A program made the position numbers and the translations under genes. DNA of 64,000 nt from an uncultured bacterium (GTDB lineage Bacteria; Verrucomicrobiota; Kiritimatiellia; RFP12; UBA1067), in NCBI GenBank assembly GCA_942493055.1, contig OW818680.1:4544174-4608173 (forward strand), written 5' to 3'. Positions 6,735 to 55,142 of the stretch are shown one piece after another. The first letter of the stretch is position 1. Every line of letters starts with the position of its first letter. The notes beneath the pieces are model-generated. The model was not told where the DNA came from. It saw only the letters and a program-made list of their open reading frames with translations, and did no database searches.

Positions 6735-6797
6735 GCCAGGAGAAGTTCTAAAGTTCGCGAGTTCTAAAGTTCGAAAATGAAACTTGAAACTCGAAAC

Positions 6798-6840
6798 GTT
6801 GAGCGTTGAGCGTTTTAACTTTTAACGCTGAACGCTCAAC
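6798..6840 (+). terminator. Long perfect hairpin after the esterase gene (terminator-like, no clear U-tract)
   Basis: gttgagcgttgagcgttttaac / ttttaacgctgaacgctcaac inverted repeat. Preceded by short repeats gttctaaagttc x2 and gaaacttgaaactcgaaac. Confidence 0.4.
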
Positions 6841-6870
6841 TCTTAACGCTCAAAGTTACAGGTAAACACC

Positions 6871-23170: not shown

Positions 23171-23255
23171 TTCTCGCAAGCCAAATATGCCACAATGACC
23201 ACGACATTTGTAATGTAGCCCCCGAATAGTGGGGCATGCCTATTATAGGAGTGGA

Positions 23256-26200
23256 ATGGAAAATCTATCGTGGAATAAGACTGCAGATCATCCCAAGGAG
23301 GGTGGACGTGTGGAACTTGAGCCTGGTACGCGGTTGGGACGTTATGAGATTTTGCGACTGCTCGGACGCGGTGGCATGGGCCAGGTTTACCTGGCTCGGC
23401 ATGAGTTGCAAAAGACGCTGCACGCATTAAAGATCCTGCCGTCGGAGTTCTCGGGCCGCGCGGGCTTCGTGGAGCGCTTCCGTACGGAACTGCAGACCAT
23501 GGCGAGGTTGCAGCATTCAAACATCGTCCATGTCCAGTACTCAGACGTCGAGGCCGGGCTCTACTATCTGGTGATGGACTTCATCGCGGCCGACGGCACG
23601 GAGGAGCCGTACGACCTGGAGGAGGCGCTGGCAGTCGAGAAGCGGCTGGAGCCTGAGACGGTGAGGCGGCTGATGCTCCGGCTCTGCGATGGGCTCTCCT
23701 TCGCCCACGGCCAGGGCGTGGTCCACCGCGACCTGAAGCCCGCGAACGTCCTGCTGACCTCCAAAGACCTTTCTGCTGCTGACGTGAAGATCTGCGACTT
23801 CGGCCTGGCGCGGGTGGTCGGCGAGGAGCAGGTGCGCACGATGGTGGCGCAGAGCATGCAGCGTTCGATGTCCATGGGCGACCAGGACACCTTCACCGAG
23901 AAGAAGCGCTCCGAGCGCAGCAGCACCGGCTCCGTGATGGGCACCTACGGCTACATGAGCCCCGAGCAGGAGGAGGGCAAGCCCGCGGACGAACGCAGCG
24001 ACCTCTACTCGCTGGGCGTGATGATGTACCGCATGATCACCGGCCAGCGGCTGCGGGGCCGCGCCAAGGCGCCGTCGGCAGTCGTGCAAGGGCTGGACAA
24101 GGCATGGGACGCGATCATCGACAAGTGCCTGGAGAACGACCCTGCGGCACGCTGGCAGACTGCGGTTGCTCTGAAGGCGGCATTGGACGCTGGCGGGAGG
24201 GTCACGCAGGGCAGTTCTAAAGTTCTAAAGTTCGGGAGTTCTAAAGTTAAGGGGAACAAGGCGTGGCTTTGGCTGGCTGGCGCTGCGGTCATCGCCGTTG
24301 TCTCAATTTTGTCCGTCAGGGCAATTCATTCCAGCAACGCGAAACGCGCCGAGGCGGCCCGTGCGGCTGCGGCATCCGCCGCGCTCGACGCGGCGCAGCG
24401 CGAGAAGGTTGCCGGGCTCGAGGCTGCGGTGGAAGCGGCGCTGGCGGCGGGCGATTTAAAGACGGCCGATTCCAAGATCGCGGAGCTGGGGCAGGCCGGG
24501 GGCGCAACCGCGCTGCGCAAGCGTTACGAGTCCAAGGCCGGCGAGAGCGATACGAACAAGCGGAGCGCGGTGGCTTCAATGGCGCGCGAGGAGGCGATGA
24601 AACTGGACGCGGGACAGGGCTTCGGGGAGAAGCTCAAGGCGCTGGAGACGGCCTGGCGCGAAGCCGAGGCGGCGCGGCAGAGCCAGGGCTGGACTCAGGC
24701 AGTGACCGGCTATGACGCGGTCATTGCGTCGTCCAAGACGCTGAAAGATGCGGAGGTCTCACGCGAAGGCGCGAAGACGCGAAGAGGTGAAGCTGAGAAG
24801 GCCAAGTCTGACGCTGAGCAGTCCCAGTCCGCGACCGACGCAGCGGATCTTTATGCGGCTGGAGGGCGAGGCTGTGTCCGAGCCGCAGGAGCCTTTGAGA
24901 AAGGCGACTTCGATGTGGCATCGAAGGACTGGCAGGAAGCGGCGCAATCTTATGCCTCGGCGCAGAAGCGGGCACTGGCGGCCCAGGATTGCCGCAAGGT
25001 GAAAGAGTCGTTCGAAGAGGCGCTGGCGCGTGACCGCGCGCTGCTGGAGAAGTACGGAGGGTCAAAATGGGCCGAGGTGAAGCTTCAGCAGAAGGCCGGC
25101 GAAGCGTCTTCGTCTGACCCTGCGGAGGGTAGTCGCGCCTACGGATTGGCGTTGGCGGCACTGCCGGGGGCGGTGGCCGAGGCCGGGAAGGCTCAGCAGG
25201 CGGATGCCGAGTATGTGGCTGCGCAGAAAAAAGCGGCGGACGATAAAAAGGCGAAAGAGCAGGCCGAAGCCGAGCGTCTAGCGGAGGAGCAAAAAGCGAT
25301 TGCCGCGAAGGCGCAACGACAAAAAGACTTTGATGGAGAGATGGTTTCCGGCAAGTCGGCGTGGGATAAGGCTGACTACTCAACCGCCTACAAAGCCTAT
25401 AAGAAGGCATTAGTATTGTGCCCGGGTGATTCAGCCGCGCAAACGAATTATTGCCAGGTGGATGCGATGCTGTCGCGCCTGAACCCTTATCGTACCGCAA
25501 AGAAAGGATGCTGGGTCAAGCGGGCCTATACTACAAAAATGAAAATGTCTTTTCCTCTTGGATCAAATTCAACGACAACACAGGAGGAAATACAATTCTT
25601 GGATGTCGGGGAAGATGTAGTTGTGACGCGCAACACCCTTAAGTCCTCATCGTCAATGACGATTGCTGGAGGATATGCCAGCGAGACTGTTACGGAACAT
25701 ACTCAGAATATCAACGAAGCATTCGGTGAAGCGAAAAGTACTCCGATCAGACAAATCACAAATGGCAAAGATAGCACCGCATCAATTAAATCGACGATGG
25801 AAAAGCTTAAGACATTTGATGAAAAGAGGGAGTTTTTGGGTTGCGAGACGATCAGGATTGGAGCACAAGAATATACAACGAAGTGCCTTCTTAAATCGGA
25901 AAAGAGAGACTTTGGATCAGGGATGCAGACGGCTATGGAGACAAAATATTGGATTTCCGAGGATACAATAGCCCCAACATTAAAACATACGATCCGCGTT
26001 AAAGTATATAACAATTCTAACACATCTTTATTGTCTGAGTCGTTTTCAACGGTATCCCTTGTTTCATTATCGCAGGAAGATGTGACAGTCAATGGGCGGG
26101 TTTTGAAGTGCAGAAAAGAGGTTAGGGTGACAGAAAACCAGAAAGATGGAACAACGGGGACATTTACTTCCTGGGAGTGTTTAGACTACCCCTGGATCGG

Positions 26201-26288
26201 CATGGTCAAAAAGGAGTCTGTGATTAAAGGGAAGAACTTTACCTCAACTGCATCGGATATTTTAGAGTCGTTTGGGCTTGGGTCGTGA
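23256..26288 (+). CDS. Hanks-type Ser/Thr protein kinase - TM - long Ala/Glu coiled coil - unknown ~270-aa C-terminal domain
   Basis: ORF-track start GTG 23229; ATG 23256 preferred (RBS aggagtgg). Kinase motifs 'LGRGGMGQVYLARH', 'ALKIL', 'HRDLKPANVLL', 'DFGLAR', 'GTYGYMSPEQ'. TM 'AWLWLAGAAVIAVVSILSV'. N-terminal ~650 aa nearly identical to the next gene. Confidence 0.8.
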   Translation: MENLSWNKTADHPKEGGRVELEPGTRLGRYEILRLLGRGGMGQVYLARHELQKTLHALKILPSEFSGRAGFVERFRTELQTMARLQHSNIVHVQYSDVEAGLYYLVMDFIAADGTEEPYDLEEALAVEKRLEPETVRRLMLRLCDGLSFAHGQGVVHRDLKPANVLLTSKDLSAADVKICDFGLARVVGEEQVRTMVAQSMQRSMSMGDQDTFTEKKRSERSSTGSVMGTYGYMSPEQEEGKPADERSDLYSLGVMMYRMITGQRLRGRAKAPSAVVQGLDKAWDAIIDKCLENDPAARWQTAVALKAALDAGGRVTQGSSKVLKFGSSKVKGNKAWLWLAGAAVIAVVSILSVRAIHSSNAKRAEAARAAAASAALDAAQREKVAGLEAAVEAALAAGDLKTADSKIAELGQAGGATALRKRYESKAGESDTNKRSAVASMAREEAMKLDAGQGFGEKLKALETAWREAEAARQSQGWTQAVTGYDAVIASSKTLKDAEVSREGAKTRRGEAEKAKSDAEQSQSATDAADLYAAGGRGCVRAAGAFEKGDFDVASKDWQEAAQSYASAQKRALAAQDCRKVKESFEEALARDRALLEKYGGSKWAEVKLQQKAGEASSSDPAEGSRAYGLALAALPGAVAEAGKAQQADAEYVAAQKKAADDKKAKEQAEAERLAEEQKAIAAKAQRQKDFDGEMVSGKSAWDKADYSTAYKAYKKALVLCPGDSAAQTNYCQVDAMLSRLNPYRTAKKGCWVKRAYTTKMKMSFPLGSNSTTTQEEIQFLDVGEDVVVTRNTLKSSSSMTIAGGYASETVTEHTQNINEAFGEAKSTPIRQITNGKDSTASIKSTMEKLKTFDEKREFLGCETIRIGAQEYTTKCLLKSEKRDFGSGMQTAMETKYWISEDTIAPTLKHTIRVKVYNNSNTSLLSESFSTVSLVSLSQEDVTVNGRVLKCRKEVRVTENQKDGTTGTFTSWECLDYPWIGMVKKESVIKGKNFTSTASDILESFGLGS

Positions 26289-26346
26289 TGTTCCTGACTG
26301 GCCAAACGCAAGCAGATGTCAAAATAGCGAGAGGATCGAGTAATCG

Positions 26347-29300
26347 ATGAGTGACGGGCAACAGACGATGAATAATGATGTGACGCGGGCCGTGCCGGGC
26401 GGCGCGGGCCGGGCGGAGCTTGAGCCTGGCACACGGCTGGGACGTTATGAGGTTCTGCGCCTCTTAGGTCGCGGGGGCATGGGCCAGGTCTATCTGGCGC
26501 GACATGAGCTGCAGAAGACGCTGCATGCGCTGAAGATCCTGCCGTCCGAGTTCTCGGGCCGCGCCGGCTTCGTGGAACGCTTCCGCACGGAGCTGCAGAC
26601 AATGGCCCGCTTGCAGCATCCGAACATCGTCCATGTCCAGTACTCCGACGTCGAGGCCGGGCTCTATTACCTCGTGATGGATTTCGTGGCGGCGGACGGC
26701 ACCGAGGAGCCATACGACCTGGAGGAGGCACTGGCAATCGAGAAGCGGCTGGAGCCGGAGATCGTGAGGCGGCTGATGCTCCGGCTCTGCGACGGACTCT
26801 CCTTCGCCCACGGCAAGGGCGTGGTCCACCGCGACCTCAAGCCCGCGAATATCCTGCTGACGTCAAAGGATCTGTCGGCTGCGGACGTGAAGATCTGCGA
26901 CTTCGGGCTGGCGCGGGTGGTCGGCGAGGAGCAGGTGCGCACGATGGTGGCGCAGAGCATGCAGCGGTCCATGTCCATAGGCGACCAGGACACCTTCACC
27001 GAGAAGAAGCGTTCCGAACGTAGCAGCACGGGCTCTGTGATGGGCACGTACGGCTACATGAGCCCCGAGCAGGAGGAGGGCAAACCCGCGGACGAACGCA
27101 GCGACCTCTACGCGCTGGGCGTGATGATGTACCGGATGATCACAGGACAGCGGCTGCGGGGGATGGCCAAACCCGCCTCGCAGGTGGTGCCCGGGCTTGA
27201 TCCGGCATGGGACGCGATCATCGGCAAGTGCCTGGAGAACGACCCTGCGGCACGCTGGCAGACAGCGGCGGAGTTGAAAGCCTCCCTAGCGGGAGGGAGA
27301 GTGGCAGTCGGTAGTAGCAGTCGGCAGTGGAACCAGGCCGCGCTGTGGCTGGTGGGTGCGGCGGTTGCGGTCGCGTTGGGGTATGGGGCGTACAGGATGT
27401 ATGCGACCTATAGGGTAGAGATGGAGAGGGATAGGGCCGCCAGTGAGCAGACTGCGAAACTCGATGCGGCGCAGCGGGAGAAGGTTGCCGGGCTTGAAGC
27501 GGCGGCAGAAGCAGCGCTGGCCGCAGGGGATCTGGAGAAAGCGGGCACCAAGATCACGGAGCTGGGGCAACTCGGAGGGACACGCGTCGGCGTGTCCGAG
27601 CTGCGCAAGCGGTACGAGGCCAAGGCCGGCGAGCGCGAAGTGAACAAGCGGTACGCGGCTGCGTCGCTGGCACGGGAAGAGGCGCAGAAGCTGAACCCAG
27701 GCCAGGGCTTCGGGGAGAAGATCAAGGCTTTGGAGACCACGTGGTGCGAAGCTGAGGCTGCGCGTCAGAGCCAGGGCTGGGGCCAGGCGCAGACCGGCTA
27801 CGACGCGGTGCTTGCATCGTGCAAGGCGCTGGGTGAGTTGGATGTCTCGCGCAGAGGCGCAGAGGCGCGGAGGGGTGAAGCGGATAAGGCCAAGTCTGAC
27901 GCTGAGCAGGCCCAGTCCGCGACCGACGCAGCAGATCTTTATGCGGCTGGAGGGCGAGGCTGTGCGCGAGCCGCCGAAACCTTTGAGAAAGGTGAGTTCG
28001 ACGCGGCAGGCAAGGACTGGCAGGAGGCCGTTTCCGCATACACCTCTGCGCGGAAAAATGCAGTAGCAGCGCAGGATTGCCGCAAGGTGAAAGCCTCGTT
28101 CGAATCGGCGCTGGCGCGTGACCGCGCGCTGCTGGAGAAGCACGGCGGGGCAAAATGGGCTGAGGTTCAGAAACAGCAGAAGGCTGCCGAGGTATCGTCG
28201 GCTGACCCTGCCGAGGCTAGCCGAGCCTACGGATTAGCATTGGCAGCCTTGCCGGGAGCAGTGACCGAGGCGAAGGCCGCTGAGCAGGATCGGCTGGCGA
28301 AGGAGAAGGGTGATGCCGAGGCGAAGGCTGCGGAGCAGGATCGGCTGGCGAAGGAGAAGGGTGAAGCCGAGGCGGAGCAGCGGCGGCAGGCCTCAGAGCG
28401 TAAGACACGTGAAGAGAAAGAATCCCGTGATCTGGCCGAGGCGGCCTATACAGCGTGGGCAGCGAAGGCGCAACCGCTGGCAGAGCGTCTCGGGCGAGAC
28501 ATAACTTCGGTTAAAGGGGCTGCCGCGAAGGCGCTGCTAGCCGAGACGGATGCTATACTCATAGGGACGGACAAGCTGGATATTACTTACCTAACGTCCG
28601 CTAGCGTGTCTGGGTTGAAGGCACTCCAGACCAAGTTGCAAAGTCTGAAGGTCGGGATCAAGATCGGGTTCGAACCTGGAGACACGGAAACGGTTGATTT
28701 AGGTTCCGGCGTAAAAATCGAGCTGGCCTGGTGCCCAGCAGGTAGCTTTATGATGGGGAGCCCCTCCACTGAAGCGAACAGGGAGAGCGATGAGTCCCAG
28801 CACCGCGTGACGCTGACGAAAAGCTTCTGGCTTGGGCGCACGGAGGTAACGCAGGCGCAGTGGGAGGCGATCATGGGGAGCAACCCGAGCAAGTTTAAAG
28901 GATCAGATTTACCCGTTGAGACAGTGAGCTGGGACGACTGTCTGGCGTTTATCAGAAAGTTGAATGGAAAACTTGAAACTGGAAATTTGAATTTCCGCCT
29001 GCCCACAGAGGCGGAGTGGGAGTACGCTTGCCGGGCTGGGAGCACGGGTCCATATGCGGGAACGCTGGAGGAGATGGGCTGGTATTTTTCCAACAGCGGA
29101 AACACGATCCACGCAGTCGGACGCAAGTGCGCGAACGCCTGGGGACTGTACGATATGCACGGAAACGTCTGGGAGTGGTGCCAAGACTGGTATGCTGAGT
29201 ATCCTGCGGGTTCCGTGACAGATCCTGAGGGGCCTGCTTCAGGTGCTGGCCGTGTCCGCCGCAGCGGCGGGTGGAACATGAGCAAGGGGAACTGTCGATC

Positions 29301-30369
29301 CGCGGATCGGAACAGGCCTGGCCCGGGCATCCAAATCATCTACGTCGGCTTCCGCCTTGCGAGGAACGCATCGATAGACGAGCCTTCTACTGCTGATGCC
29401 AAGACCGAACAGCAGATGCAACACGAAAACCGGGAAGATGGCAAGGAACCTGTTGATGGGCAAGCATGGGTCTCGCCCTCTTCGGGCATGGAATTCGTCT
29501 GGATACCTGCCCTGAAGATCTGGGTGGGCAAGTACGAGGTGACAAACGGCGAGTATCGGAAGAAGGAGGCTGCGCACGACAGCAAGGATTACAAGGGGAA
29601 CAGCTTGAACGGCGACCGCCAGCCGGTGGTGCAGGTGAATTTCGACGATGCGAAGGCGTATGCCGCGTGGCTTACGGAAAAAGACAGAGAAAAGCTAGGA
29701 GGAAAGCGTTATCGGGTGATCTCGGAGATGGAGTGGCAGACTGTGGCGCAGTGCGGTGACAACAGGGAGTACCCATGGGGAAACGCGCTGCAGCCGAAGT
29801 ACGGAAACTATTATAAAACAGACGCTTATGATGACGGGTTTGTGGTTACGTGTCCCGTGGAACAGAGCGGCAAGAACGACTGGGGCCTTTACGGGATCGG
29901 AGGCAACGTGTGGGAGAGCTGCGCGATGGACGTCTCCGGCTCGTCGTTCGGGGCTTGGCGCGGCGCGTCGTGGGGCTACGACTATCCCGACGTTTTGCGG
30001 TGCGCGGCTCGCGACGGCGGCGGCGGATCGGGCCGCAGCTACTTCTACGGCTTCCGCCTTGTCTTGTCAGGTAACCAGCGAAGTGATGTTGATGAAATAT
30101 CCTCATGTGTTAGCCTGATCAGGAATGCACTCTACAAAGCTTGGAAGCAACCGAAACAAAGTGAAGCGGGTTCACGTCCGGCCAAACTTTATATTCGCCT
30201 TGATGCTTCAGGCAGATTCGTCAATTATCGTATTACTCAATCGTCAGGCAGCACTATCTTTGACACGAGCGTACTGAAGGCCGCAGCCAATTGCCCGCCA
30301 GTTCGTGATGTAACAGCAGGTTTTCTTAAAAAGCATGACGAACTTACAATCGAGTTCAGACTCGAATAG
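26347..30369 (+). CDS. Hanks-type Ser/Thr kinase - TM - coiled coil - two FGE-sulfatase (SUMF1/DUF323-like) domains - TonB_C-like C-terminal domain
   Basis: Same kinase motifs as the previous gene. FGE-like blocks 'VSWDDCLAFIRKLN', 'RLPTEAEWEYACRAGSTGPY', 'GLYDMHGNVWEWCQDWY', then a second copy 'GLYGIGGNVWESC'. C-terminus 'LYIRLDASGRFVNYRITQSSGSTIFDTSVLKAAANCPP' is TonB C-terminal-like. Internal 36-bp tandem repeat at about 28270-28370. Confidence 0.8.
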   Translation: MSDGQQTMNNDVTRAVPGGAGRAELEPGTRLGRYEVLRLLGRGGMGQVYLARHELQKTLHALKILPSEFSGRAGFVERFRTELQTMARLQHPNIVHVQYSDVEAGLYYLVMDFVAADGTEEPYDLEEALAIEKRLEPEIVRRLMLRLCDGLSFAHGKGVVHRDLKPANILLTSKDLSAADVKICDFGLARVVGEEQVRTMVAQSMQRSMSIGDQDTFTEKKRSERSSTGSVMGTYGYMSPEQEEGKPADERSDLYALGVMMYRMITGQRLRGMAKPASQVVPGLDPAWDAIIGKCLENDPAARWQTAAELKASLAGGRVAVGSSSRQWNQAALWLVGAAVAVALGYGAYRMYATYRVEMERDRAASEQTAKLDAAQREKVAGLEAAAEAALAAGDLEKAGTKITELGQLGGTRVGVSELRKRYEAKAGEREVNKRYAAASLAREEAQKLNPGQGFGEKIKALETTWCEAEAARQSQGWGQAQTGYDAVLASCKALGELDVSRRGAEARRGEADKAKSDAEQAQSATDAADLYAAGGRGCARAAETFEKGEFDAAGKDWQEAVSAYTSARKNAVAAQDCRKVKASFESALARDRALLEKHGGAKWAEVQKQQKAAEVSSADPAEASRAYGLALAALPGAVTEAKAAEQDRLAKEKGDAEAKAAEQDRLAKEKGEAEAEQRRQASERKTREEKESRDLAEAAYTAWAAKAQPLAERLGRDITSVKGAAAKALLAETDAILIGTDKLDITYLTSASVSGLKALQTKLQSLKVGIKIGFEPGDTETVDLGSGVKIELAWCPAGSFMMGSPSTEANRESDESQHRVTLTKSFWLGRTEVTQAQWEAIMGSNPSKFKGSDLPVETVSWDDCLAFIRKLNGKLETGNLNFRLPTEAEWEYACRAGSTGPYAGTLEEMGWYFSNSGNTIHAVGRKCANAWGLYDMHGNVWEWCQDWYAEYPAGSVTDPEGPASGAGRVRRSGGWNMSKGNCRSADRNRPGPGIQIIYVGFRLARNASIDEPSTADAKTEQQMQHENREDGKEPVDGQAWVSPSSGMEFVWIPALKIWVGKYEVTNGEYRKKEAAHDSKDYKGNSLNGDRQPVVQVNFDDAKAYAAWLTEKDREKLGGKRYRVISEMEWQTVAQCGDNREYPWGNALQPKYGNYYKTDAYDDGFVVTCPVEQSGKNDWGLYGIGGNVWESCAMDVSGSSFGAWRGASWGYDYPDVLRCAARDGGGGSGRSYFYGFRLVLSGNQRSDVDEISSCVSLIRNALYKAWKQPKQSEAGSRPAKLYIRLDASGRFVNYRITQSSGSTIFDTSVLKAAANCPPVRDVTAGFLKKHDELTIEFRLE

Positions 30370-30586
30370 GTAGAGCGCGTCCCTCCCTTGAGCGCGGTAA
30401 ATCCATCTTCCAGCGTGATTGCTGGGATACGCAGTTGCGGGTGGCGAGAGTTGCCATGAAAAACGGGAATATGTTCGCAACAATCCCGTGCGACGGGGGT
30501 TGGTTGCGTGACCGGACGCGCAACCCTCCTATGCTTTGCTCCGGAGGCCAAGCGCGCATCCTTCCGAATCAGTGCCGGAAAATGCG

Positions 30587-30602
30587 CAGACAGGAATGTC
30601 TG
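30587..30602. promoter_or_regulatory. Perfect-arm palindrome CAGACAggaaTGTCTG (putative operator) about 90 bp upstream of the promoter
   Basis: Arms CAGACA/TGTCTG are exact reverse complements. Same 26-nt block 'cagacaggaatgtctg[c/t]gccaccttg' at about 46453 and about 55029. Confidence 0.4.
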
Positions 30603-30669
30603 CGCCACCTTGCGCGTCCATCCGAAATATCGAATAATGAATGATAAAATAAAATATTTAAAAATAGCA

Positions 30670-30700
30670 GTTGACAACAAACATAAACAAACGTTAAGAT
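30670..30700 (+). promoter_or_regulatory. Sigma70-like promoter: TTGACA - 17 bp - TTAAGA(T), AT-rich UP region
   Basis: ttgacaacaaacataaacaaacgttaagat, then ggcgtttta. RBS agaggag before ATG 30731. Near-identical module at about 46526. Confidence 0.5.
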
Positions 30701-30730
30701 GGTGGCGTTTTAAAGAAGAGGAGTATACTT

Positions 30731-31072
30731 ATGGCAACTGATAAAGAGTTTTTGAGTTTGGAGGAGGTCGCAGATGAGATGGGGGTGACTTATCAGCTCA
30801 TTTATCGTCTCGTGCGCTCGGGTGAGTTGCCCGCCGCTCGGATCGGCAAGCTCTATCGCGTGTCGCGCTCGGATCTGGGTGAGTATCTGCAGCAGAGTAA
30901 AAAGGGTTCGTTCGAGGGCGGAACGTGCATGGCCTGCGGGACCTTCTATCGGAGTAAGGGGACGCTTCAACAGGCGTGCACGGTCTGCGGCGCTCCGGTC
31001 TGTTTTGATTGCTGGGTGCGTCAAGGTGTGCGGGAGTGCGCAGCGCACAAGAACGAAGCTGAAAAGAAATAA
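30731..31072 (+). CDS. Excisionase/MerR-family HTH DNA-binding protein with C-terminal Cys4 zinc ribbon
   Basis: 'LSLEEVADEMGVTYQLIYRLVRSGELPAARIGKLYRVSRSDLGEYL' is an Xis-type HTH. 'CMACGTFYRS...CTVCGAPVCFDCW...CAAH' is a zinc ribbon. Confidence 0.6.
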   Translation: MATDKEFLSLEEVADEMGVTYQLIYRLVRSGELPAARIGKLYRVSRSDLGEYLQQSKKGSFEGGTCMACGTFYRSKGTLQQACTVCGAPVCFDCWVRQGVRECAAHKNEAEKK

Positions 31073-31165
31073 TTCACCCCTTTTTTCATGAATTAACGTT
31101 GACTCTGTTGGTGGCAATTCGTAAACTCTCAACAAAGATGGGTTTTAAAGAAAGCGAGGAACAAG

Positions 31166-32836
31166 ATGGGCATATTCAGTGATACGTGTGACGCATTGAT
31201 TGATCCGAATACAGGCAAGGCTTTAACAGCCGCTGCACTGGAACAGGGAAAGCTGGATCCCAAGTGGCCCAGATGCAATAACTCGGTACGCAAGGGTGCC
31301 CGCTTCTGCAACAAGTGCGGCTCTCCCGCGCCGGGCGGCTGGTGGAAGTGCCCCTCGTGTAATAAATGGATTGGCAATGACGCGCAGTTCTGCTCGCATT
31401 GCAATACGCCCTTGTATCCTGAAGACCGCAGTGCCATCGCGGGCGGGGTGTGGCGCAAGGATCCCGGACTGCTGGCCCAGCGCTTTGAAATCGGGGACAT
31501 CAAACGTCTGCTCAAAGATGATTTGCAGATTCAAGAGGGGACCGTCGCAGTCGTGATCGACGGCGGACATCTCCACGGGATACTCGAGAGCGGCCGTCAC
31601 AACCCTGATAGCCTGATGCGCCGGATCAACTGGTTCGGCAATCCGCCGCCGCGCTCGACCGTGCTCATGGACGCGGGCGATGTCGCGCTTCCGCTGAAGG
31701 TCGAGGGACTTCGCACGGCAGAGCATCATCCCATTGAATTCTACGGTGAGGTCATCCTGCGCTTTGTCAATGACAAGGCCTCCGCGCTCGCCTTTCTTGA
31801 AAACGCCCTCAAGGATCGCCGCCAATTGACCTATCAGGATATTTCAGCCTCGTTGCAAGGGGTCGTCCGGACGGCGGTGGATGCGCTCTGCGTGACCTCG
31901 AAGCTGGACGACCTGGTGCGTGATCCTGAACGGCGCATGCGTCTACAGGAGACCATGGTCCGGGTGATCGGCGAAGATGTGGGACGCTATGGACTCCAGG
32001 TGGTGCGCGTCTCCTCTGCGGAGTTCACGGGCGAAGCCTACGAGGAGTATGCCGAGCAGCTCGGCGACGTGGATATCAAGCGCCGCCAGCTGGAATATGC
32101 GGCCACGATGCGCGCCATGCTGAACAAAGAGACGATGTCCCAGATCAAGGACCAGAACGAGCTGTTGGAGTATGAAGCGCAGGCAGCCCAGGAGTTTGGC
32201 ATTTCGCAGGCGCATCGCGAGCAGGAACGCACCGTATTACTCCGTGGCTTTAATCACCAGAATGAACTGGACGAACTGCGCCATCAGCATGATGTTGAAA
32301 ACCAGGAGGTGGAGCAGTCCATTGGCGTCAAGGTCAAATGGGATGACTATAATCTTGAGCTTCAGATCAGGAAGGCCAACACGGATGCCGATGTACGGCG
32401 CATTGCTGTTACGCAGGAGATGGAGGAGGCCAGAGATGCCTTGAAGCTGCGGCAGGAGAAGGACCGCGTTGACCAGGAGCGCAAAGCCGCGGATGCCAAG
32501 CGCCGTGCGAACATGTCGTTGCAGGAACGGCTGATGGATGTGGATGATCCGGCGGTGCGGGCTCAGCTCCTGGAACTCATGATCACCGAGCGCAATCAGA
32601 ACATGACGCCCGAGCAGATTCTGGCCGAAGCGGCCCGGCACAGCCCTGCGGCTGCCGCGGCGCTCGCCAGCATGAGCGACAAGAGCAAGGAAAATGCCGA
32701 ACGTGTCTTATCGGAGATGAAGAAACTTTATGCCGATGCGAATGATCGGCAGGACAAGAATCTTAAAACCATGCTTGAACCAGCGGTCGAGGCGGCAAAA
32801 CGGCCCGGAGGGCCTCCGCAGACGATCATACGTTAA
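31166..32836 (+). CDS. Double zinc-ribbon + SPFH/Band-7 (flotillin-like) domain + long coiled coil
   Basis: 'RCNNSVRKGARFCNKCGSP...WKCPSCNKWIGNDAQFCSHCNTP'. SPFH-like 'VLMDAGDVALPLKVEGLRTAEHHPIEFYGEVILRFVNDKASALAFLEN...VVRTAVDALCVTSKLDDLVRDPERRMRLQETMVRVIGEDVGRYGLQVVRVSSAEF'. Glu/Arg/Gln-rich coiled coil follows. Confidence 0.55.
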   Translation: MGIFSDTCDALIDPNTGKALTAAALEQGKLDPKWPRCNNSVRKGARFCNKCGSPAPGGWWKCPSCNKWIGNDAQFCSHCNTPLYPEDRSAIAGGVWRKDPGLLAQRFEIGDIKRLLKDDLQIQEGTVAVVIDGGHLHGILESGRHNPDSLMRRINWFGNPPPRSTVLMDAGDVALPLKVEGLRTAEHHPIEFYGEVILRFVNDKASALAFLENALKDRRQLTYQDISASLQGVVRTAVDALCVTSKLDDLVRDPERRMRLQETMVRVIGEDVGRYGLQVVRVSSAEFTGEAYEEYAEQLGDVDIKRRQLEYAATMRAMLNKETMSQIKDQNELLEYEAQAAQEFGISQAHREQERTVLLRGFNHQNELDELRHQHDVENQEVEQSIGVKVKWDDYNLELQIRKANTDADVRRIAVTQEMEEARDALKLRQEKDRVDQERKAADAKRRANMSLQERLMDVDDPAVRAQLLELMITERNQNMTPEQILAEAARHSPAAAAALASMSDKSKENAERVLSEMKKLYADANDRQDKNLKTMLEPAVEAAKRPGGPPQTIIR

Positions 32837-32854
32837 AACAGAGGACTAAAAATA

Positions 32855-34348
32855 ATGGCGCGTATCACGTGCAAGGAGTGTGGCAAACGGACTGCTGAGG
32901 GGCCGTTCTGCGATGAGTGCGGCGCTGCGCAGGACGGCTCCGTCAACCCATTAGCCCAGAAGCCGGAACCGGCTCCCTTCCGGGACGACTTGCCGACTCA
33001 AGATAAAAAAATTGTGATTGAGCTGCCCAGCCAGGAGAGGCCGCAGCCGGCGACGCAGGCTGCGACTTCTTCGCAGAGTGAACCCTTCTCCTCTACCTTT
33101 GACGACTGTCCCTGGTTGTGGGTGGAGCGCGACCGGATGATCTCCTGTCTGGAGAATGCGAATGGCGTTTTGCGGTTCAAGCTCTCCGCCCATGCGGAGG
33201 GCATGGAGGATGTGCGTGTGAACCTGCGCTTCCAGAGGGGAAGCGCTGCGGCGATCCCCTGGATGAAGCCAAAATTCGGCCAAACCAAAGAGCTGAAGCT
33301 GAATATTCCTCCGATGCCGCCAGGGGCGCATCCAGTGGAACTGCATCTTCAGCTTCGCAAAGATCACCAGAATCTGAAATTCGAGACCACGATCGAACTC
33401 TACGTCTATCCCACGGACAGTTCGGCCGGAAAAATCGCTGAGAGTATTGTCTTTAACATCACGAACGACATCAAGACAGGGCATGCCTCGGATGTGCATC
33501 TGTCACAGGATGCGGCGAGTGCGTTTAAGCAGTTCACGAAAAATGGACATCCGCACGCCTTGACAGATCTCTTGAATCTGATGAACACGGAACTGCGCGC
33601 CTATCGCCGAGAGGAACTCTATGAGGCTGGTTGCGAAAGTGCACCCGCGTCTCCGACGCCCCCTCCGCAGGAGGCGCTCTGCAAACGCCTCTCCCTTTCT
33701 GTGGGAGGACAGATGCTGCATCTGATTGCTGAGCGCCGGGCGACGCTGGGCAAGAACCGGGACAATCACGTGGTGACGCGCCGCTTCAATCCGCAAGGTG
33801 TTGCGGATGTGCAACTCTGCGAACGGATCAGCAAGTTTCACTGCACTGTGGAGCTGGAGGGTATGGCGTGTGTGCTTCAAGATGGCGTACGGGATGAGTA
33901 CGGCCGTCCCAAGCCTTCGACCTGGGGCATCTCCTGGCAGGGAAAAGCGATACAGGGGTCCCTGCGGCTTCCCCTGGAGACCCTGCCAGCGCGCGGGCAA
34001 CTGGGTTTGGTCAACAACGTAGGCCACTCGGATTTCGAGTTGACCGTCTGTCCACATCCCTTTGATTTTACCCAGTGTTCCACCTGCAGCCAGCAAGCCC
34101 GTCAAGCCTGCTCGAATGGACGCATCCCGGCGCTGCTGCTGCGCAGGACCGATCAGGTGCAGGAGCACTATCTGCTGGCGTGGTCCTGCTTTGATTTAGG
34201 GTGCGTGTTTCCTGAGTGCGCGGGCATGGTGGTCTGCTATGAACAGGGCGCCTTTTCCATCCGCTCCTCAGGCACGTTCGGCTGGCTTGTGCCAGGACGG
34301 CACGTCGGCATGATCGAAGTCCGGTCATTTGCTCAGTATGGATTGTAA
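32855..34348 (+). CDS. N-terminal zinc ribbon + FHA (phosphothreonine-binding) domain protein
   Basis: 'CKECGKRTAEGPFCDECGA'. FHA block 'ATLGKNRDNHVVTRRFNPQGVADVQLCERISKFHCTVELEGMACVLQDG...STWGISWQGKAIQG' (G-R...S..H......L.D..S.NG pattern). Confidence 0.6.
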   Translation: MARITCKECGKRTAEGPFCDECGAAQDGSVNPLAQKPEPAPFRDDLPTQDKKIVIELPSQERPQPATQAATSSQSEPFSSTFDDCPWLWVERDRMISCLENANGVLRFKLSAHAEGMEDVRVNLRFQRGSAAAIPWMKPKFGQTKELKLNIPPMPPGAHPVELHLQLRKDHQNLKFETTIELYVYPTDSSAGKIAESIVFNITNDIKTGHASDVHLSQDAASAFKQFTKNGHPHALTDLLNLMNTELRAYRREELYEAGCESAPASPTPPPQEALCKRLSLSVGGQMLHLIAERRATLGKNRDNHVVTRRFNPQGVADVQLCERISKFHCTVELEGMACVLQDGVRDEYGRPKPSTWGISWQGKAIQGSLRLPLETLPARGQLGLVNNVGHSDFELTVCPHPFDFTQCSTCSQQARQACSNGRIPALLLRRTDQVQEHYLLAWSCFDLGCVFPECAGMVVCYEQGAFSIRSSGTFGWLVPGRHVGMIEVRSFAQYGL

Positions 34349-34374
34349 GATGTTCAACAAAGGAGGGGTGTATC

Positions 34375-35004
34375 ATGGCTTTTTTATTTATTAAGACGAA
34401 GAAGGAGAAGGCACGCGAGGTGCGTAAGGATCGCCGCCGCGCGTTCCGTCAGGCTGAGAATTCGATTCAGGATGTGAAGGACCGTGCCAAGCGCATGGAC
34501 AAGGATGCCGATGCCGACTGGCAGAAGGCGCGCGATGCGCTGAAGGAAGGCAAGAAGGCCGCGGCCCAGCGTGCGCTGACGAGCTATCGGGCTGCTCAGG
34601 TGCTGATGACCAAGCTGGAACAGAAACGGTGGGTCTTCGAGCAGTACCTGATGAAGATGGAGGCCGCAGGAACCGATGCCGAATTTGCGAATGCCCTTGC
34701 CTCGGTCAACAAGGTGACCGACATCAATCCTGAGATGGTCGAGGATGTCTTCGACACCGCCGGCGAACTGCTCGGCGAACAGCAGGACGCGGACCGTTTC
34801 TGGTCCTCCCTGTACGACAAGGAGATGGAAGGGGCGACCGGTTCATTGCAGGATCACATCCCCTCCATGGAAGAACTCAGCCAGGCGCTGGAACAGGAAG
34901 TCGCCGCTGAAATTTCAGGGAGCGGTGCCAAGACCGCCTCCGAGATGGAACGCCGCATCGGCTCAGGACAGGACAAGGTGCGCGAGATGCTCGGCGGGAA
35001 GTAA
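34375..35004 (+). CDS. ESCRT-III/Snf7/PspA-superfamily-like coiled-coil protein
   Basis: 209 aa. Basic N-terminus (KTKKEKAREVRKDRRR). 'KKAAAQRALTSYRAAQVLMTKLEQKRWVFEQYLMKMEAAGTDAEFANALASVNKVTDINPEMVEDVFDTAGELLGEQQD' parallels Snf7 'KKRYEKQL...EALENANTNTEVLKNM..AAKAMK...MDIDKVDELMQDIADQQELAEEIS'. Acidic C-terminus. Assignment by motif only. Confidence 0.45.
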   Translation: MAFLFIKTKKEKAREVRKDRRRAFRQAENSIQDVKDRAKRMDKDADADWQKARDALKEGKKAAAQRALTSYRAAQVLMTKLEQKRWVFEQYLMKMEAAGTDAEFANALASVNKVTDINPEMVEDVFDTAGELLGEQQDADRFWSSLYDKEMEGATGSLQDHIPSMEELSQALEQEVAAEISGSGAKTASEMERRIGSGQDKVREMLGGK

Positions 35005-35189
35005 GCGATGTAAGAGCCCATGCGGGAACAAACTGACTTGTGATTTTTTTCTCACAGAGGCACAGAGCTCACAGAGAAATGCTTTTGTCGCGTTTTTAGG
35101 GTGTTGCGTGGAAACCCCAATAGAAATTACACGCGCTCGTCCTTCCCATAACGCGTGCCTCTTTTTTTGTTTTTTGTAAAGGTTCAGTT

Positions 35190-36329
35190 ATGAAGACATT
35201 AGCAGAGATGAAGGCTGAGCATGAACAAGCGTGTGCCGAATTCGTGAAGGTGCATGACTATGCCCGCGCAGCAGTGGAGGCCGCGCGTGCGGCTGAATAC
35301 GGTTATGCGCTTGCCGGGCGTACCTCCGGTTCTGTCGCAGAGGCGCATACGCAAGACGCGGATGGGTGGGTGGCGTTGTCAGGAGAGCTGAAGAAGAGAA
35401 AGTCGGCAGTGGGCAGTGGGCAGTCGGCAGTTGATGGGAGGAGATCTGACGGTGGAGAACAGAAGGCCGATGCAGAAGCGACGGGCGGCGATGAGTGGCT
35501 GGTGGCGGAGAAGCCGGATGTGACCTTTGAGGATATTTGCGGGATGGCGGAGGCCAAGCGCGTGATTCATGAAATGGTGGTCTATCCCATGAGCAGTCCT
35601 GAAAAAGCCCGGGCGTTGGGACTGAATGCCGGTGGCGGCGTCCTTGTCTATGGCCCTCCCGGGACTGGAAAGACCATGCTGGGCAAGGCTGTCGCGGGTG
35701 TGTTGCAGTGTCCCTTCTATTATGCCTCGGGTGCTCAAGTGCGCTCGAAGTGGTACGGAGAGTCTGAGCAGCGGTTGAGCCGCTTGATTAAGACGGCCCA
35801 GGAGCAGCCCATGGCGGTTCTCTTTCTCGATGAGGTCGAAGCGCTCCTGCCCAAGCGGGAGGATGGCACGTCTGGAGCGGATCATCGCCTGGTGACGCAG
35901 TTTCTGGCGGATGTCGGCGGCTTCAGGGAGACTAAAAATATTCTCTTGATCCTCGGTGCGACGAACAAGCCCTGGGAGATCGACGAGGCGGTCTTCCGCT
36001 CAGGCCGCTTCGATGAAAAGATCTATATCGGATCCCCGGACTATGAAGCCCGCTTAGGCATCCTCAAAAAACATATTGGCATTGCCGCATGCGACGAAGC
36101 CGTGAACATGGAGTCCCTTGCTGAATCGTTGGAAGGATTTTCAGGAAGTGATGTGGCCGGAATTGTTCATGCCGCTAAACGGTTGGCTCTGGGGCGCGCC
36201 GTCCTCACGGAGCGCGAGCCTGTGATCATTGCCGATGATTTTGAAAACGCCCGGCAACGGATACCGAGTTCGATCACGTCTGAGATGCTGTCCGAGTTCG
36301 AGGCCTTTAAGAAAAAAAGATTCGGATAA
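35190..36329 (+). CDS. AAA+ ATPase, Vps4/CDC48-like clade, with about 110-aa helical N-domain (possible MIT-like)
   Basis: 'PDVTFEDICGMAEAKRVIHEMVVYP', Walker A 'GVLVYGPPGTGKTMLGKAVAG', 'SKWYGESEQRLSRLIKTAQEQPMAVLFLDEVEALL' (Walker B/DEVE), SRH 'LILGATNKPWEIDEAVFRSGRFDEKIYIGSPD'. GCAGTNG microsatellite encodes the 'SAVGSGQSAVDG' linker. Confidence 0.75.
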   Translation: MKTLAEMKAEHEQACAEFVKVHDYARAAVEAARAAEYGYALAGRTSGSVAEAHTQDADGWVALSGELKKRKSAVGSGQSAVDGRRSDGGEQKADAEATGGDEWLVAEKPDVTFEDICGMAEAKRVIHEMVVYPMSSPEKARALGLNAGGGVLVYGPPGTGKTMLGKAVAGVLQCPFYYASGAQVRSKWYGESEQRLSRLIKTAQEQPMAVLFLDEVEALLPKREDGTSGADHRLVTQFLADVGGFRETKNILLILGATNKPWEIDEAVFRSGRFDEKIYIGSPDYEARLGILKKHIGIAACDEAVNMESLAESLEGFSGSDVAGIVHAAKRLALGRAVLTEREPVIIADDFENARQRIPSSITSEMLSEFEAFKKKRFG

Positions 36330-38996: not shown

Positions 38997-39257
38997 TTGG
39001 GCACAACGCCGTGAAGCGTATCGCTGAAGTGACGAAAGAGGAGTCTGAAGATTTTTATTATGTGTGAGTTACCTTGGACTGTTAGGCAGTTGCTATGAAT
39101 ACTGACATGGAGAGGTGTTTTCGTGTAATTTGCTCGCCCGGAATGCGCAGAATGTGTTGGACAAGCGGGGCAAAAAGGGGTACGATTTTCCACGTTGCTT
39201 TGTTGCTTTTCTTAGTATCCTGTAAGTTTATCAGGTTCCCCATAAATAATATCTACT

Positions 39258-43055: not shown

Positions 43056-43079
43056 GGGTGACCGTGGTAGGTAACGACT

Positions 43080-46322: not shown

Positions 46323-46337
46323 AACATTGGTATGACC

Positions 46338-46356
46338 GGACGCGCAACGCGCGTCC
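46338..46356 (+). terminator. GC-rich perfect hairpin immediately after kinase gene (terminator-like)
   Basis: ggacgcgc-aac-gcgcgtcc, 8-bp perfect stem. No strong U-tract. Confidence 0.35.
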
Positions 46357-46371
46357 CTCCGAGGAGAGGCA

Positions 46372-46440
46372 GGGAGTCGATGGGAGTCGAGGAAATCGAT
46401 AGAGTCGACAGAATCGAATCAGTCGATTCCATCGATTCGG
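46372..46440. promoter_or_regulatory. Iteron-like array: about 7 (A/G)(G)TCGA(T) cores at about 9-10 bp periodicity upstream of the duplicated operator/promoter
   Basis: gagtcgatgggagtcgaggaaatcgatagagtcgacagaatcgaatcagtcgattccatcgattcggg. Many cores are the palindrome ATCGAT/GTCGAC. Confidence 0.35.
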
Positions 46441-46452
46441 GCGAATTGATCG

Positions 46453-46468
46453 CAGACAGGAATGTCTG
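46453..46468. promoter_or_regulatory. Second copy of CAGACAggaaTGTCTG palindrome (putative operator)
   Basis: Identical to about 30587. Followed by gtgccaccttg. Confidence 0.4.
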
Positions 46469-46525
46469 TGCCACCTTGAATAACAAACAATAAATAAAAT
46501 AAAATAGAAATAAGTAAAAATACTA

Positions 46526-46554
46526 GTTGACAACAAACATAAACAAATAGTAAT
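46526..46554 (+). promoter_or_regulatory. Sigma70-like promoter TTGACA - 17 bp - TAATAT, duplicate of the promoter at about 30670
   Basis: ttgacaacaaacataaacaaatagtaatat, then ggcgtttta. Upstream AT-rich aataaaataaaata is shared with the first copy. Confidence 0.5.
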
Positions 46555-46641
46555 ATAGCGGCGTTTTAGGAGATTGTGAATTTGATGGAAGAGGAAAGAG
46601 GATTGAGTTATCATGATGCACATTAAAGTGAGTACTGCTTC

Positions 46642-47562
46642 ATGAATGAGTCAGAAAAAAAATGTTGCGTGTGCGGGCAGGCGTTGCCGAATCGCTGGGC
46701 GATCGGCGGGCGCTGTACGGAGAAGGGATGCGAGGCTCTGTTTTGCAGACTTCATGCGAGCCAGGGCAATGGACAGTGTCGGGCGCATGGCTGGAAGGAG
46801 AAAGCGATGAATACAATTATGGGAAGCCGGAAGTCGGAAATGAAAAGCCAGGATCGTGCGGCGGAGCGCGCGGAGGAACTGAGGCTCGTCCGGCAGGCTA
46901 CGGCTGACCTGGCCAAGAAGGCCATGGCAGGAACCCTCTTCCTGGCACAAAAGATTGGCGCGGGCGCAAAGACGATCTGGGCGAAGCTGCATGTGGACCG
47001 CTCCCCGGAGGCGATGCTGAGTTCCCTGCATGGCAGCCTGGATGAGAATACAGTGCGCCGTGAGAAGGCGGCAACAGAGATGGAAGCCCTTCATATCCAA
47101 ATCGCAGCCAAGAAGAAGCTCTATCAAGCCGCTGCGCCTGTGCGTCAACGGATGCTGAAGACGGAGCTGCAGACCCTGATGACGCATTACAAGAGTCTTG
47201 AGCGCGAGTTCATGCTGCTGTCGGAGAACGAGAAGACGATTCTGACCATCAAGGGGCGGTTTATGGAGTTGATTGCGCATGGTCTGCGCGGCAAGGTGGA
47301 TGAAGATCTGATTGACCGGCTGGCCAGCGATGTCGAGGACAAGACCGATGACGCGGAATCCATCCAGGATGCCATGGGCGACCTTGAAAAGGCGGGACGT
47401 CGGAAGGATCGCGAAGGGGGCGATTTCGACTCCGAGCTGGCGGGCTTTGGCGATATCGAATTGCCCGCCTCCGCAGAGGAGACAAAAGAGGGCACAGCAA
47501 GCGAGCCGCCCCTTTCAAGCACACCCCGTATTACGGGCAAGGAAGAGCCGCTGGCGGAGTAA
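46642..47562 (+). CDS. N-terminal zinc ribbon + long coiled coil protein (weak ESCRT-III/PspA-like resemblance), acidic C-terminus
   Basis: 'CCVCGQALPNRWAIGGRCTEKGCEALFCRLHASQGNGQCRAHGW'. Helical heptad-rich body. 'ILTIKGRFMELIAHGLRGKVDEDLIDRLASDVEDKTDDAESIQDAMGDL' loosely parallels the Snf7 C-terminal helices. Driven by a copy of the 30670 promoter. Confidence 0.45.
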   Translation: MNESEKKCCVCGQALPNRWAIGGRCTEKGCEALFCRLHASQGNGQCRAHGWKEKAMNTIMGSRKSEMKSQDRAAERAEELRLVRQATADLAKKAMAGTLFLAQKIGAGAKTIWAKLHVDRSPEAMLSSLHGSLDENTVRREKAATEMEALHIQIAAKKKLYQAAAPVRQRMLKTELQTLMTHYKSLEREFMLLSENEKTILTIKGRFMELIAHGLRGKVDEDLIDRLASDVEDKTDDAESIQDAMGDLEKAGRRKDREGGDFDSELAGFGDIELPASAEETKEGTASEPPLSSTPRITGKEEPLAE

Positions 47563-50374: not shown

Positions 50375-50560
50375 ATGAACCGCAAAGAGCAATTACAAAA
50401 CGAACATCAGGGACGTGTGGATCGGATGCGCATCGATTCTCCGCTGCCCAGACGCGTCATGCCGCAGCAGCGGTGGAGTATGCGAGGGATGATATTGATT
50501 CTTCTTGGCGCACTCGTACTGACAGGCGTAGCTGTGTGGGCTTTATTTGGAGGAATTTAA
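50375..50560 (+). CDS. Small (61-aa) protein with C-terminal TM helix; stop immediately precedes the lipoprotein ATG
   Basis: 'MRGMILILLGALVLTGVAVWALFGGI'. taa-gc-ATG junction with 50563. Its 3' part is inside the 537-bp direct repeat. Confidence 0.3.
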   Translation: MNRKEQLQNEHQGRVDRMRIDSPLPRRVMPQQRWSMRGMILILLGALVLTGVAVWALFGGI

Positions 50561-54765: not shown

Positions 54766-55140
54766 TTAGTGTATTAGTGATACTTGAAACTGGGCTTGCA
54801 AGGAACTGGGGGAACAGGCATCCTGCCTGTTGGGTGAGTGCACAGGCAGGATGCCTATGCTCCCAGTGACGTTCACCTTCTTGTCGCTCCCGAATACGCT
54901 TATCTTAGCGCCATTCTTGTCTATCCCCTTATCACCGTTCTCCTTTGCTTTGCCTTCAGAAAAGGAGCGTGGGCGTCCCGCCCGCACGGAGCCGGGACGG
55001 CTCCGCCACCTTGGCCCGCAATCAGCCGCAGACAGGAATGTCTGCGCCACCTTGGGGAGACAGGGGGACAGACAAGAATGGCTTTCGCGGAACATCCACC
55101 TTCGCGATGCCTACGGCGGACAGGTCGAACGCACTGAGTG
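54766..55140. repeat. Composite mosaic repeat (family D, copy 2) including a third copy of the CAGACAggaaTGTCTG palindrome
   Basis: gaaacttgaaactgg...cctgcctgttgggtg, gtgcacaggcaggatgcctatgctccc (reverse complement of the 18170-18375 block), ttctcctttgc...gcgtgggcgtcccgcc, cagacaggaatgtctgcgccaccttggggagacaggggg. Confidence 0.45.
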
Positions 55141-55142
55141 CG

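Follow-up and report, generated by a model that had tools for sequence, protein, structure and literature searches.

In a 64,000-nucleotide stretch of the genome of an uncultured bacterium of the Kiritimatiellia (GenBank assembly GCA_942493055.1, contig OW818680.1, positions 4,544,174 to 4,608,173; termed the window in the following), two genes starting at 30731 (A1) and 46642 (B1) are each preceded by the same short palindrome and, downstream of it, by the same promoter-like strings. Is this arrangement a regulatory cassette with the palindrome as operator, or do unrelated elements lie side by side? The initial annotation had favored the former, considering palindrome and promoter as one duplicated unit and the helix-turn-helix (HTH) protein encoded by A1 as the regulator that binds the palindrome. 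The palindrome, the promoter strings, and the third palindrome copy at about 55029 which it listed are all present. We consider it highly probable, however, that two independent neighbors meet at these sites, namely a repetitive extragenic palindromic (REP) element ending the trailer of the upstream unit, and a conserved promoter/leader module heading the operons A and B.

The 16-mer CAGACAGGAATGTCTG has three exact matches in the window (at 30587, 46453, and 55029); when up to three mismatches are allowed, six matches are found, as compared to 0.58 expected from the shuffled window. The tail GCCACCTTG occurs five times (0.8 expected), and the full palindrome, CAGACAGGAATGTCTG followed by C or T and GCCACCTTG, exists in exactly three copies, all read on the plus strand. 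Copy A (30584..30612) forms a 9-bp stem GCGCAGACA/TGTCTGCGC with a GGAA loop, followed by the tail CCACCTTG which appears as a GGTGG tag on the minus strand; its predicted folding energy is -17.7 kcal/mol. Copy B (46451..46478) has an 8-bp stem CGCAGACA/TGTCTGTG including one G·T pair, and the same loop and CCACCTTG tail. Copy C (55027..55054) is situated within a cluster of other hairpin repeats, past the end of the B gene block. Since a neighboring plus-strand element with a different stem (CGGAGCCG gga CGGCTCCG, 54987..55013) ends in exactly the same CCACCTTG, this tail is a family tag. The stems of the REP hairpins of the window comprise 8–9 bp, are GC-rich, and enclose a GGAA loop (-11.8 to -17.7 kcal/mol), and an unpaired GGTGG, a tag of the GTAG/GTRG/GTGG type, adjoins the stem on the minus strand, where the plus strand reads ...GCCACC. 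Perfect hairpins in general are about 7-fold enriched between the genes of the window (21 in 8.1 kb of intergenic DNA, 21 in 55.9 kb of coding DNA), and many of the intergenic ones carry GGA, GGAA, or TCC loops and CTCC, GCTCCCA, or CCACC tails. All three exact REP copies are located downstream of co-directional gene blocks, which end at 30369, 46322, and 54656. A search of the whole window against Rfam at gathering thresholds returned no match.

One genome per species was scanned with the exact 23-mer CAGACAGGAATGTCTGYGCCACC as query. It was found in at least 120 stretches from 36 assemblies and about eight phyla, with 146 copies among the matches listed; these derive from Planctomycetota, Verrucomicrobiota, Lentisphaerae, Acidobacteriota, Ignavibacteria/Kapaibacteria, Chloroflexota, Zixibacteria, and ‘Zipacnadia’, and include two records without a metagenome-assembled genome label as well as several assemblies that contribute at least ten stretches each. 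The initial annotation had itself allowed that a palindrome scattered over a great many sites would be a generic repeat, and a generic repeat is what the scan revealed. The flanks of the 146 listed copies are unrelated. Fourteen inverted doublets with outward tails and a start-to-start distance of 38 or about 55 nt occur among these copies, besides one tandem array with a period of 29 nt (L082). As judged by a crude open reading frame (ORF) caller, 98 of the 146 copies lie outside ORFs, and single copies are found between convergent (24) or tandem genes (35, i.e., 21 + 14) and are depleted between divergent ones (7). The 148 ORFs beside listed copies match 124 Pfam families, none of which is represented by more than three ORFs, and neither HTH_17 nor a Y1 transposase is among the 25 families listed for them.

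Variants of the hairpin show that pairing of the stem is mostly maintained. In non-seed variants, the change of the loop-proximal stem pair from A-T to G-C is compensated in 14 cases and one-sided in five, the outer stem pairs also co-vary, and every stem carries a CAC(C) or TAC(C) tail. None of the viral contigs searched contained a copy, leaving carriage of the palindrome by phages unsupported, and the sequence was not found in the literature searched. In several genomes the identical hairpin sits inside larger, genome-specific repeats with conserved flanks of some tens of nucleotides, which differ between the CAWBOY assembly (L022, L028, L031, L032, L072, L075), Kapaibacterium (L017, L078, L085), and Planctomycetaceae (L004, L005, L029, L040).

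Rather than an operator, the palindrome represents a GT(A/G)G-tagged REP element, and it shows every sequence-level feature of this superfamily. GTAG-tagged REPs consist of the tag followed by a GC-rich palindrome with stems of 6–9 bp and a short loop, tolerate G·T pairs, occur in complementary variants and ‘HH’ dimers, and have been described from the PVC superphylum, Cyanobacteria, and Chloroflexi, where the ORFs on either side are unidirectional or convergent; 24 families have been published, some of them common to distant organisms, and the tag of the GTAG-20 elements of Opitutus terrae is mostly GTGG (Di Nocera, De Gregorio and Rocco 2013, PMC3733652). The palindrome of the window likewise has a GC-rich stem with a short loop, flanked on one side by an unpaired GT(A/G)G tag, together with G·T pairs, complementary variants, occurrence as singles, tags-out dimers, and clusters, and unidirectional or convergent contexts. 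It differs from the published elements in that an exact 23-mer spans about eight phyla and the hairpin resides in different larger repeat units in different genomes. Its stem, CAGACA-GGAA-TGTCTG, is absent from the supplements of PMC3733652, and the element is assigned to the superfamily by its anatomy, not matched to one of the 24 families.

E. coli REP/BIME elements, as also summarized in the same article (PMC3733652), act as mRNA 3′-end stabilizers or transcription attenuators. Like these, the REP element of the window is a stable hairpin that lacks a U-tract and follows the last gene of a co-directional block; in contrast to them, it is absent from the same sites in close relatives. Systems of the REPIN/RAYT and REPtron type are reportedly the subject of work by Nunvar in 2010, Ton-Hoang in 2012, and Bertels and Rainey in 2011. 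The inverted doublets of the palindrome with their short fixed spacer (38 or about 55 nt) are consistent with REPIN-like units; however, no RAYT/Y1 transposase was detected in the window or among the families listed for the ORFs next to sampled copies, which leaves mobilization of the element hypothetical.

If the palindrome were an operator, it should be retained at orthologous promoters. It was not found upstream of A or B in the related loci L183–L192, which include the genome encoding an HTH protein 96% identical to that of the window. Nor do its neighbors form a coherent gene set linked to a regulator gene: 124 Pfam families adjoin it, divergent contexts are depleted, and the promoter core was not found in any of the at least 120 palindrome stretches listed. 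Locus L183, that of the closest relative, has a single palindrome copy, which ends a composite trailer made up of a GGACGCGCaacGCGCGTCC-CTCC hairpin and GAGTCGA/AATCGA repeats and is located after a kinase gene and before an AAA gene that lacks the twin promoter. In the window, the corresponding trailer module (46333..46450, plus strand; GGACGCGCaacGCGCGTCC-CTCC hairpin, then short GAGTCGA/AATCGA repeats) is homologous to L183 trailers with or without a REP, and copy B closes this repeat-rich trailer downstream of the kinase gene 43080-46322. The same trailer thus precedes promoter B of the window with the REP and promoter A of L183 without it. In each kinase array, a repeat-rich trailer containing a REP is present only behind the last gene.

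Because the trailers mix in this way and the AT-rich tracts of the promoters follow their own locus, the tract of window A resembling that of L183 A and the tract of window B that of L183 B, palindrome and promoter were not duplicated together as one cassette. Gene conversion across the entire cassette was likewise rejected, given that each AT tract is orthologous to its counterpart at the same locus of L183. Most simply, the REP would be part of the 3′ trailer of the upstream unit, with the twin promoters just starting where such units end. As regards gene order, B precedes A in L183, A precedes B in the window and in the genomes G3–G5, and the trailer upstream of promoter A of L183 is homologous to the one upstream of promoter B of the window. 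This swapped arrangement suggests recombination between the twin promoters or between the trailers.

The promoter blocks themselves (30633-30712 and 46489-46568) share 76% identity over 80 nt, including a 23-mer, AGTTGACAACAAACATAAACAAA, common to both. Two exact copies of the 21-mer core TTGACAACAAACATAAACAAA exist in the window (0.00 expected), and GGCGTTTTA directly follows the -10 hexamer at both loci. For such strings the duplication described in the initial annotation as verbatim is indeed exact; beyond them, the palindromes differ at the C/T position, 13 extra nucleotides separate the AT-rich stretch from the palindrome tail at locus A, and the stretches of the two loci cannot be aligned without indels. 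The palindrome copies lie 48–58 nt upstream of the -35 hexamer at both promoters.

On the plus strand, promoter A comprises an AT-rich UP-like tract (30633..30670, orthologous to that of L183 A) and a core (30671..30700) with TTGACA (30671-30676), an 18-nt spacer AACAAACATA|AACAAACGT, and TAAGAT (30695-30700), followed by a GC-rich discriminator/start region (30701..30730, GGTGGCGTTTTA) with a predicted transcription start site (TSS) at about 30707 and the Shine-Dalgarno (SD) sequence GAGGAG (30718-30723). The spacer contains a 10-bp tandem direct repeat (AACAAAC) which begins at the last A of the -35 hexamer, so that the element reads TTGAC-AACAAACATA-AACAAACGTT-AAGAT. Promoter B, likewise on the plus strand, has an AT-rich UP-like tract (46489..46526, orthologous to that of L183 B), a core (46527..46556) with TTGACA, the 18-nt spacer ACAAACATAAACAAATAG, and TAATAT (46551-46556), and a leader (46557..46641, AGCGGCGTTTTA) with a predicted TSS at about 46563, an SD-like GGAG (46569-46572), and a 13-codon upstream ORF (uORF; MEEERGLSYHDAH plus stop codon, 46585-46626), behind which B1 starts about 80 nt past the predicted TSS. 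The uORF begins 12 nt after the SD-like GGAG; it is kept in L183 as MEEQRGLRYHDAH plus stop codon, including one synonymous change, and is not conserved in more distant relatives. The leader of the B operon in genome G3 contains (CAGAAGA)n heptamer repeats (L192 4690-4790).

The hexamers reported initially were thus confirmed; their spacing in the window is 18 nt at both loci instead of the 17 nt stated, and 17–18 nt in relatives. TTGACA-18-TAAGAT and TTGACA-18-TAATAT each agree with the sigma-70 consensus in 10 of 12 positions. An extracytoplasmic function (ECF)-type sigma factor site (AAC...CGT) was ruled out by its spacing of only 14 nt. Related A loci encoding products with 96, 83, 82, and 77% identity to A1 were retrieved together with the B loci of the same genomes, and both operons were headed by the same promoter block in all five genomes. 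In the alignment of the ten promoters, 28 columns are invariant, above background and all between about -43 and about +9; they comprise TA upstream of the -35 hexamer, TTGACAA, A.A, TAAACAAA, TAA.AT, and G.C...T. Sequences further upstream than about -43 could not be aligned. In the A1–A2 intergenic spacer, used as a control, only the SD sequence and the start codon are conserved across the same genomes, and a promoter-like site at 31099 within it is kept only in L183. When the window and about 130 kb of related loci were scanned with a position weight matrix built from the ten sites, the A and B sites were the sole matches, with no other site above 15 bits and none in shuffled sequences. The 62 matches obtained in a metagenome scan with an 18-mer of the promoter core all had unrelated flanks.

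The order of elements is an AT-rich UP-like tract, TTGACA, a 17/18-nt spacer, TAAGAT/TAATAT/TAAAAT, a GGCGGCG discriminator, TTTTA, and an SD-like GGAG, which serves the HTH gene in A and in B precedes variable leaders of 80–330 nt. We infer that the twin block is a sigma-70-type promoter/leader module with an UP-like tract, predicted to be active. The rrnB P1 promoter is the familiar example of an UP-element promoter with a GC-rich discriminator. The twin promoters resemble it in their AT tract at about -40 to -60, their consensus -35 hexamer, and the GC-rich stretch between the -10 hexamer and the start; in contrast to rrnB P1, the sequence of their 17–18 nt spacer is conserved, and the genes driven do not belong to the translation apparatus. 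Variants of the first repeat are common to the A and B promoters of three lineages. Concerted evolution of the two promoters is nevertheless not claimed, since A–B distances within a genome equal the orthologous distances.

What, then, do the two operons have in common? As the initial annotation had noted, their coding content differs; the products of A1 and B1 are unrelated (E=0.14). A1 (30731..31072, plus strand) encodes a 113-residue HTH_17 protein (excisionase/MerR-like winged HTH) with eight invariant Cys/His residues and is the first gene of the A operon (30731-36329). This operon, which is also found in L183–L194, encodes the HTH_17-zinc protein, a DZR protein with an SPFH/Band_7 domain, a Zn-ribbon protein with an FHA match in relatives, a 209-residue Snf7-family protein, an AAA ATPase, and Ser/Thr kinases fused to FGE-sulfatase domains. 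The B operon encodes four or more proteins of unknown function, the first of which, B1 (46642..47562, plus strand; 306 residues), has a conserved Cys-rich N-terminus. In more distant relatives (62–66% identity to A1), the two sets are joined: the L193 gene string contains, in this order, genes for HTH_17, DZR-SPFH, and Zn/FHA, then orthologues of B3, B2, and B1, and finally genes for the Snf7-family protein, for a caspase, and for the AAA ATPase. BLASTP searches identified orthologues of B1–B3 and A1–A5 in this one string, the B1 orthologue sharing 37% identity (E=2e-61). The single-string loci are L193 10001-19066 and L194 10001-15361; the caspase gene of L193 encodes a Peptidase_C14 protein and suggests a stress or conflict-type system.

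Judged from this gene content, the A and B operons of the window are two halves of one system, parted by kinase genes in the window lineage. The twin promoter fits such a split, because A and B form one string in more distant relatives, and the two operons are probably switched on together. The shared regulatory module and small regulon proposed by the initial annotation is accordingly retained in a stronger form, as two promoters and one system conserved in five genomes.

Some properties of the encoded proteins deserve mention. The source annotation and several gene callers place the B1 start at an internal Met (251 residues), omitting window positions 46642-46806. Since the 55 upstream codons, which include the Cys-rich motif CCxCG, are conserved in all relatives, the 306-residue form is probably the real one. 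The Snf7-family protein has a weak Pfam match of its own, many of its at least 700 homologues carry PF03357, and its only matches in the Protein Data Bank (PDB) are to yeast Snf7. The AAA ATPase aligns over nearly its full length with the NCBIfam CdvC model, with a score far below the cut-off, and its closest solved relatives are the D2 domains of CDC48/p97; the label ‘Vps4-like’ was dropped in view of the CdvC score, and the protein is referred to only as a single-domain classical AAA ATPase. Vps4-like ATPases appear to be absent from bacteria (2025 review, PMC7619361). The Snf7-family/AAA/SPFH locus of the A operon deserves a separate analysis. The window contains five paralogous Ser/Thr kinase genes in two tandem arrays (23229-30369 and 36336-46322), most of which code for FGE-sulfatase fusions, one for a protein with a Yip1 domain, and one for a protein with TonB_C.

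The description of the A1 product as an HTH protein was confirmed. Its N-terminal 55 residues match PF12728 (HTH_17; 52.7 bits, cut-off 27) and TIGR01764 (54.1 bits, cut-off 28.8), and a Cys-rich tail follows. There are at least 387 homologues; among the relatives, the HTH region is near-invariant, the eight Cys/His residues are invariant, and A1 is the first gene behind promoter A in every relative examined. An AlphaFold2 model (pLDDT 83) points to a MerR-like winged helix similar to Xis and BldC: the top Foldseek matches were Pukovnik Xis (4J2N), RdfS (8DGL), RacA (5I44), and BldC (6AMA), with probability 1.00, TM values normalized to the target (TMt) of 0.6–0.8, about 0.7–0.8 in the comparison with the Xis/BldC-type proteins, and weak E-values of 2.5e-3 or worse, and the best PDB match by sequence was Pukovnik Xis as well. 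For Xis, RdfS, and BldC, the DNA targets are direct repeats, on which the proteins assemble head to tail. A1 is predicted to share its fold with these proteins, and the spacer of the twin promoter is a 10-bp tandem repeat; unlike them and RacA, A1 has a C-terminal module of eight Cys/His residues, enough for two zinc sites. Since proteins of this kind bind direct repeats, the spacer would, if A1 autoregulates its gene, be a likelier target than the palindrome. We tentatively suggest that the conserved spacer and discriminator may be bound by a shared regulator, with A1 as the best candidate. More speculative, and somewhat less likely still, is the specific proposal that the AACAAAC direct repeat, perhaps together with the discriminator, is the operator of A1, which would bind head-to-tail between -35 and -10, possibly use its zinc module as a sensor, and so coordinate the split operon.

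A serious rival to the binding of A1 to the spacer is that conservation of the two promoters reflects nothing but promoter strength, of the growth-rate or stringent-type housekeeping class, with no dedicated regulator and a spacer kept for DNA shape only. We consider this less likely than not, though not by far. In its favor, the AT tract, TTGACA, and the GGCGGCG discriminator are visible in the sequence, a co-evolution signal is missing, and the spacer motif is absent from distant relatives in spite of their having the same HTH domain. On the other side, the invariance of the spacer octamer TAAACAAA in ten of ten promoters is unusual for a spacer, and a DNA-binding protein is always encoded by the first gene behind promoter A.

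A role of the REP as an insulator, its hairpin stopping or trimming read-through from the kinase genes so that the downstream operon relies on its own promoter, is possible and would explain why, in A as in B, the trailer closes with a REP just where the UP tract starts. Each of the three exact copies stands behind a co-directional gene block, REPs generally occur after 3′ ends, and the G·T pair in the stem of copy B is compatible only with RNA of the plus strand. The hairpins lack a T-run, however, relatives do without the REP at the same promoters, and in L183 trailer and REP precede a gene that has no twin promoter; an insulating function is therefore on the doubtful side.

It is improbable that the shared block is a mere relic of segmental duplication or recombination devoid of shared regulatory meaning. 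Paralogous kinase genes and repeated trailers abound in the region, the gene order differs (A...B in the window, B...A in L183), and the upstream trailers are swapped; but five genomes (77–96% A1 identity) have retained the block in front of both operons, in which genomes nearby intergenic DNA cannot be aligned, its invariant columns coincide with functional promoter elements, and both operons encode parts of one ancestral string. Least credible of all is the original proposal, in which the HTH protein encoded at 30731 uses the palindrome as its operator to autoregulate its gene and co-regulate 46642, palindrome and promoter forming one duplicated cassette: the location of both copies close upstream of the twin -35 hexamers and the HTH gene immediately downstream are outweighed by the cross-phylum dispersal of the palindrome, its absence from orthologous promoters even beside a 96% identical HTH protein, the lack of the promoter core at the other palindrome loci among the matches listed, the unrelated neighbor genes without HTH_17 among the listed families, the locus-specific AT tracts, which are orthologues and not copies of one another, and a predicted A1 fold class that includes direct-repeat binders and so argues against a palindromic site.

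With two independent neighbors as the preferred explanation, the REP would most likely be transcribed as the 3′-terminal hairpin of the upstream message, acting as stabilizer or termination aid, or it may be selfish DNA. The promoter module, consisting of AT tract, TTGACA-17/18-TAAGAT/TAATAT, GGCGGCGTTTTA, and SD sequence, would head both operons. An ancestral single string presumably split in the window lineage, each half obtaining a copy of promoter plus leader, which would keep the two halves co-expressed.

Several observations weigh against this explanation. The REP hairpins lack a T-run and hence are not canonical intrinsic terminators. The count of three exact copies in the source genome rests on the 64 kb sampled, and the gene-context statistics on the crude ORF caller. 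A RAYT (Y1/HUH transposase) gene was found neither in the window nor among the 25 families listed beside sampled copies, and a single-copy RAYT gene may exist elsewhere. The distance between the A and B promoters within a genome (7.8 differences) is no different from the distances between genomes (9.4 and 6.6). The distant relatives L193 and L194 keep the invariant HTH domain, but their promoters (TTGACA-17-TAAACT/TAAAAT) have no conserved spacer sequence, which weakens the idea of the spacer as operator; TAAACAAATATAAACAAAAA upstream of the -35 hexamer of L194 is a weak hint only. Promoter, TSS, and any 3′-end role of the REP are predictions from sequence.

Other features of the window concern its repeats and its right-hand end. 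A 3′-end fragment of a tRNA gene on the minus strand (about 59405-59440; ARAGORN detected no intact tRNA) is followed by a phage-type integrase gene (59576-60706) and a fall in GC content to about 0.40. This region (about 59405-64000) resembles the border of an integrated mobile element. Recent duplications link 50445-50744 with 55333-55632 (99% identity) and 55139-55340 with 57638-57839 (97% identity). Affected are small ORFs whose products of 169 and 181 residues have no Pfam match, beside the hairpin cluster of REP copy C. Intergenic short tandem repeats of the GGAATACTG type, AGTTCTAAAGTTC, and GAACATCCAACAT are present at 220-266, 5391-5429, 6744-6870, 24213-24258, and 59116-59371, and a run of about 15 G residues near 59310.

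The REP element and the promoter are of ordinary types, the latter with an unusually conserved spacer, and duplication of a promoter along with the splitting of an operon is familiar; current understanding stands. For genomes of the PVC type, the locus illustrates that short perfect palindromes near promoters are usually REPs, which calls for a cross-genome screen before such palindromes are termed operators, and the exact conservation of this REP over about eight phyla, together with its reuse in larger repeats, is a data point on the spread of REP families. The twin promoter is a phylogenetically footprinted cis-element that links two operons of a conserved Snf7/AAA/SPFH/kinase locus, an example of promoter duplication accompanying an operon split, and a defined candidate DNA target for the small HTH_17-zinc protein. 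If A1 does bind there, it would coordinate an uncharacterized bacterial Snf7-family/classical-AAA/SPFH/FHA/Ser-Thr-kinase system in a PVC lineage, which in some relatives includes a caspase.

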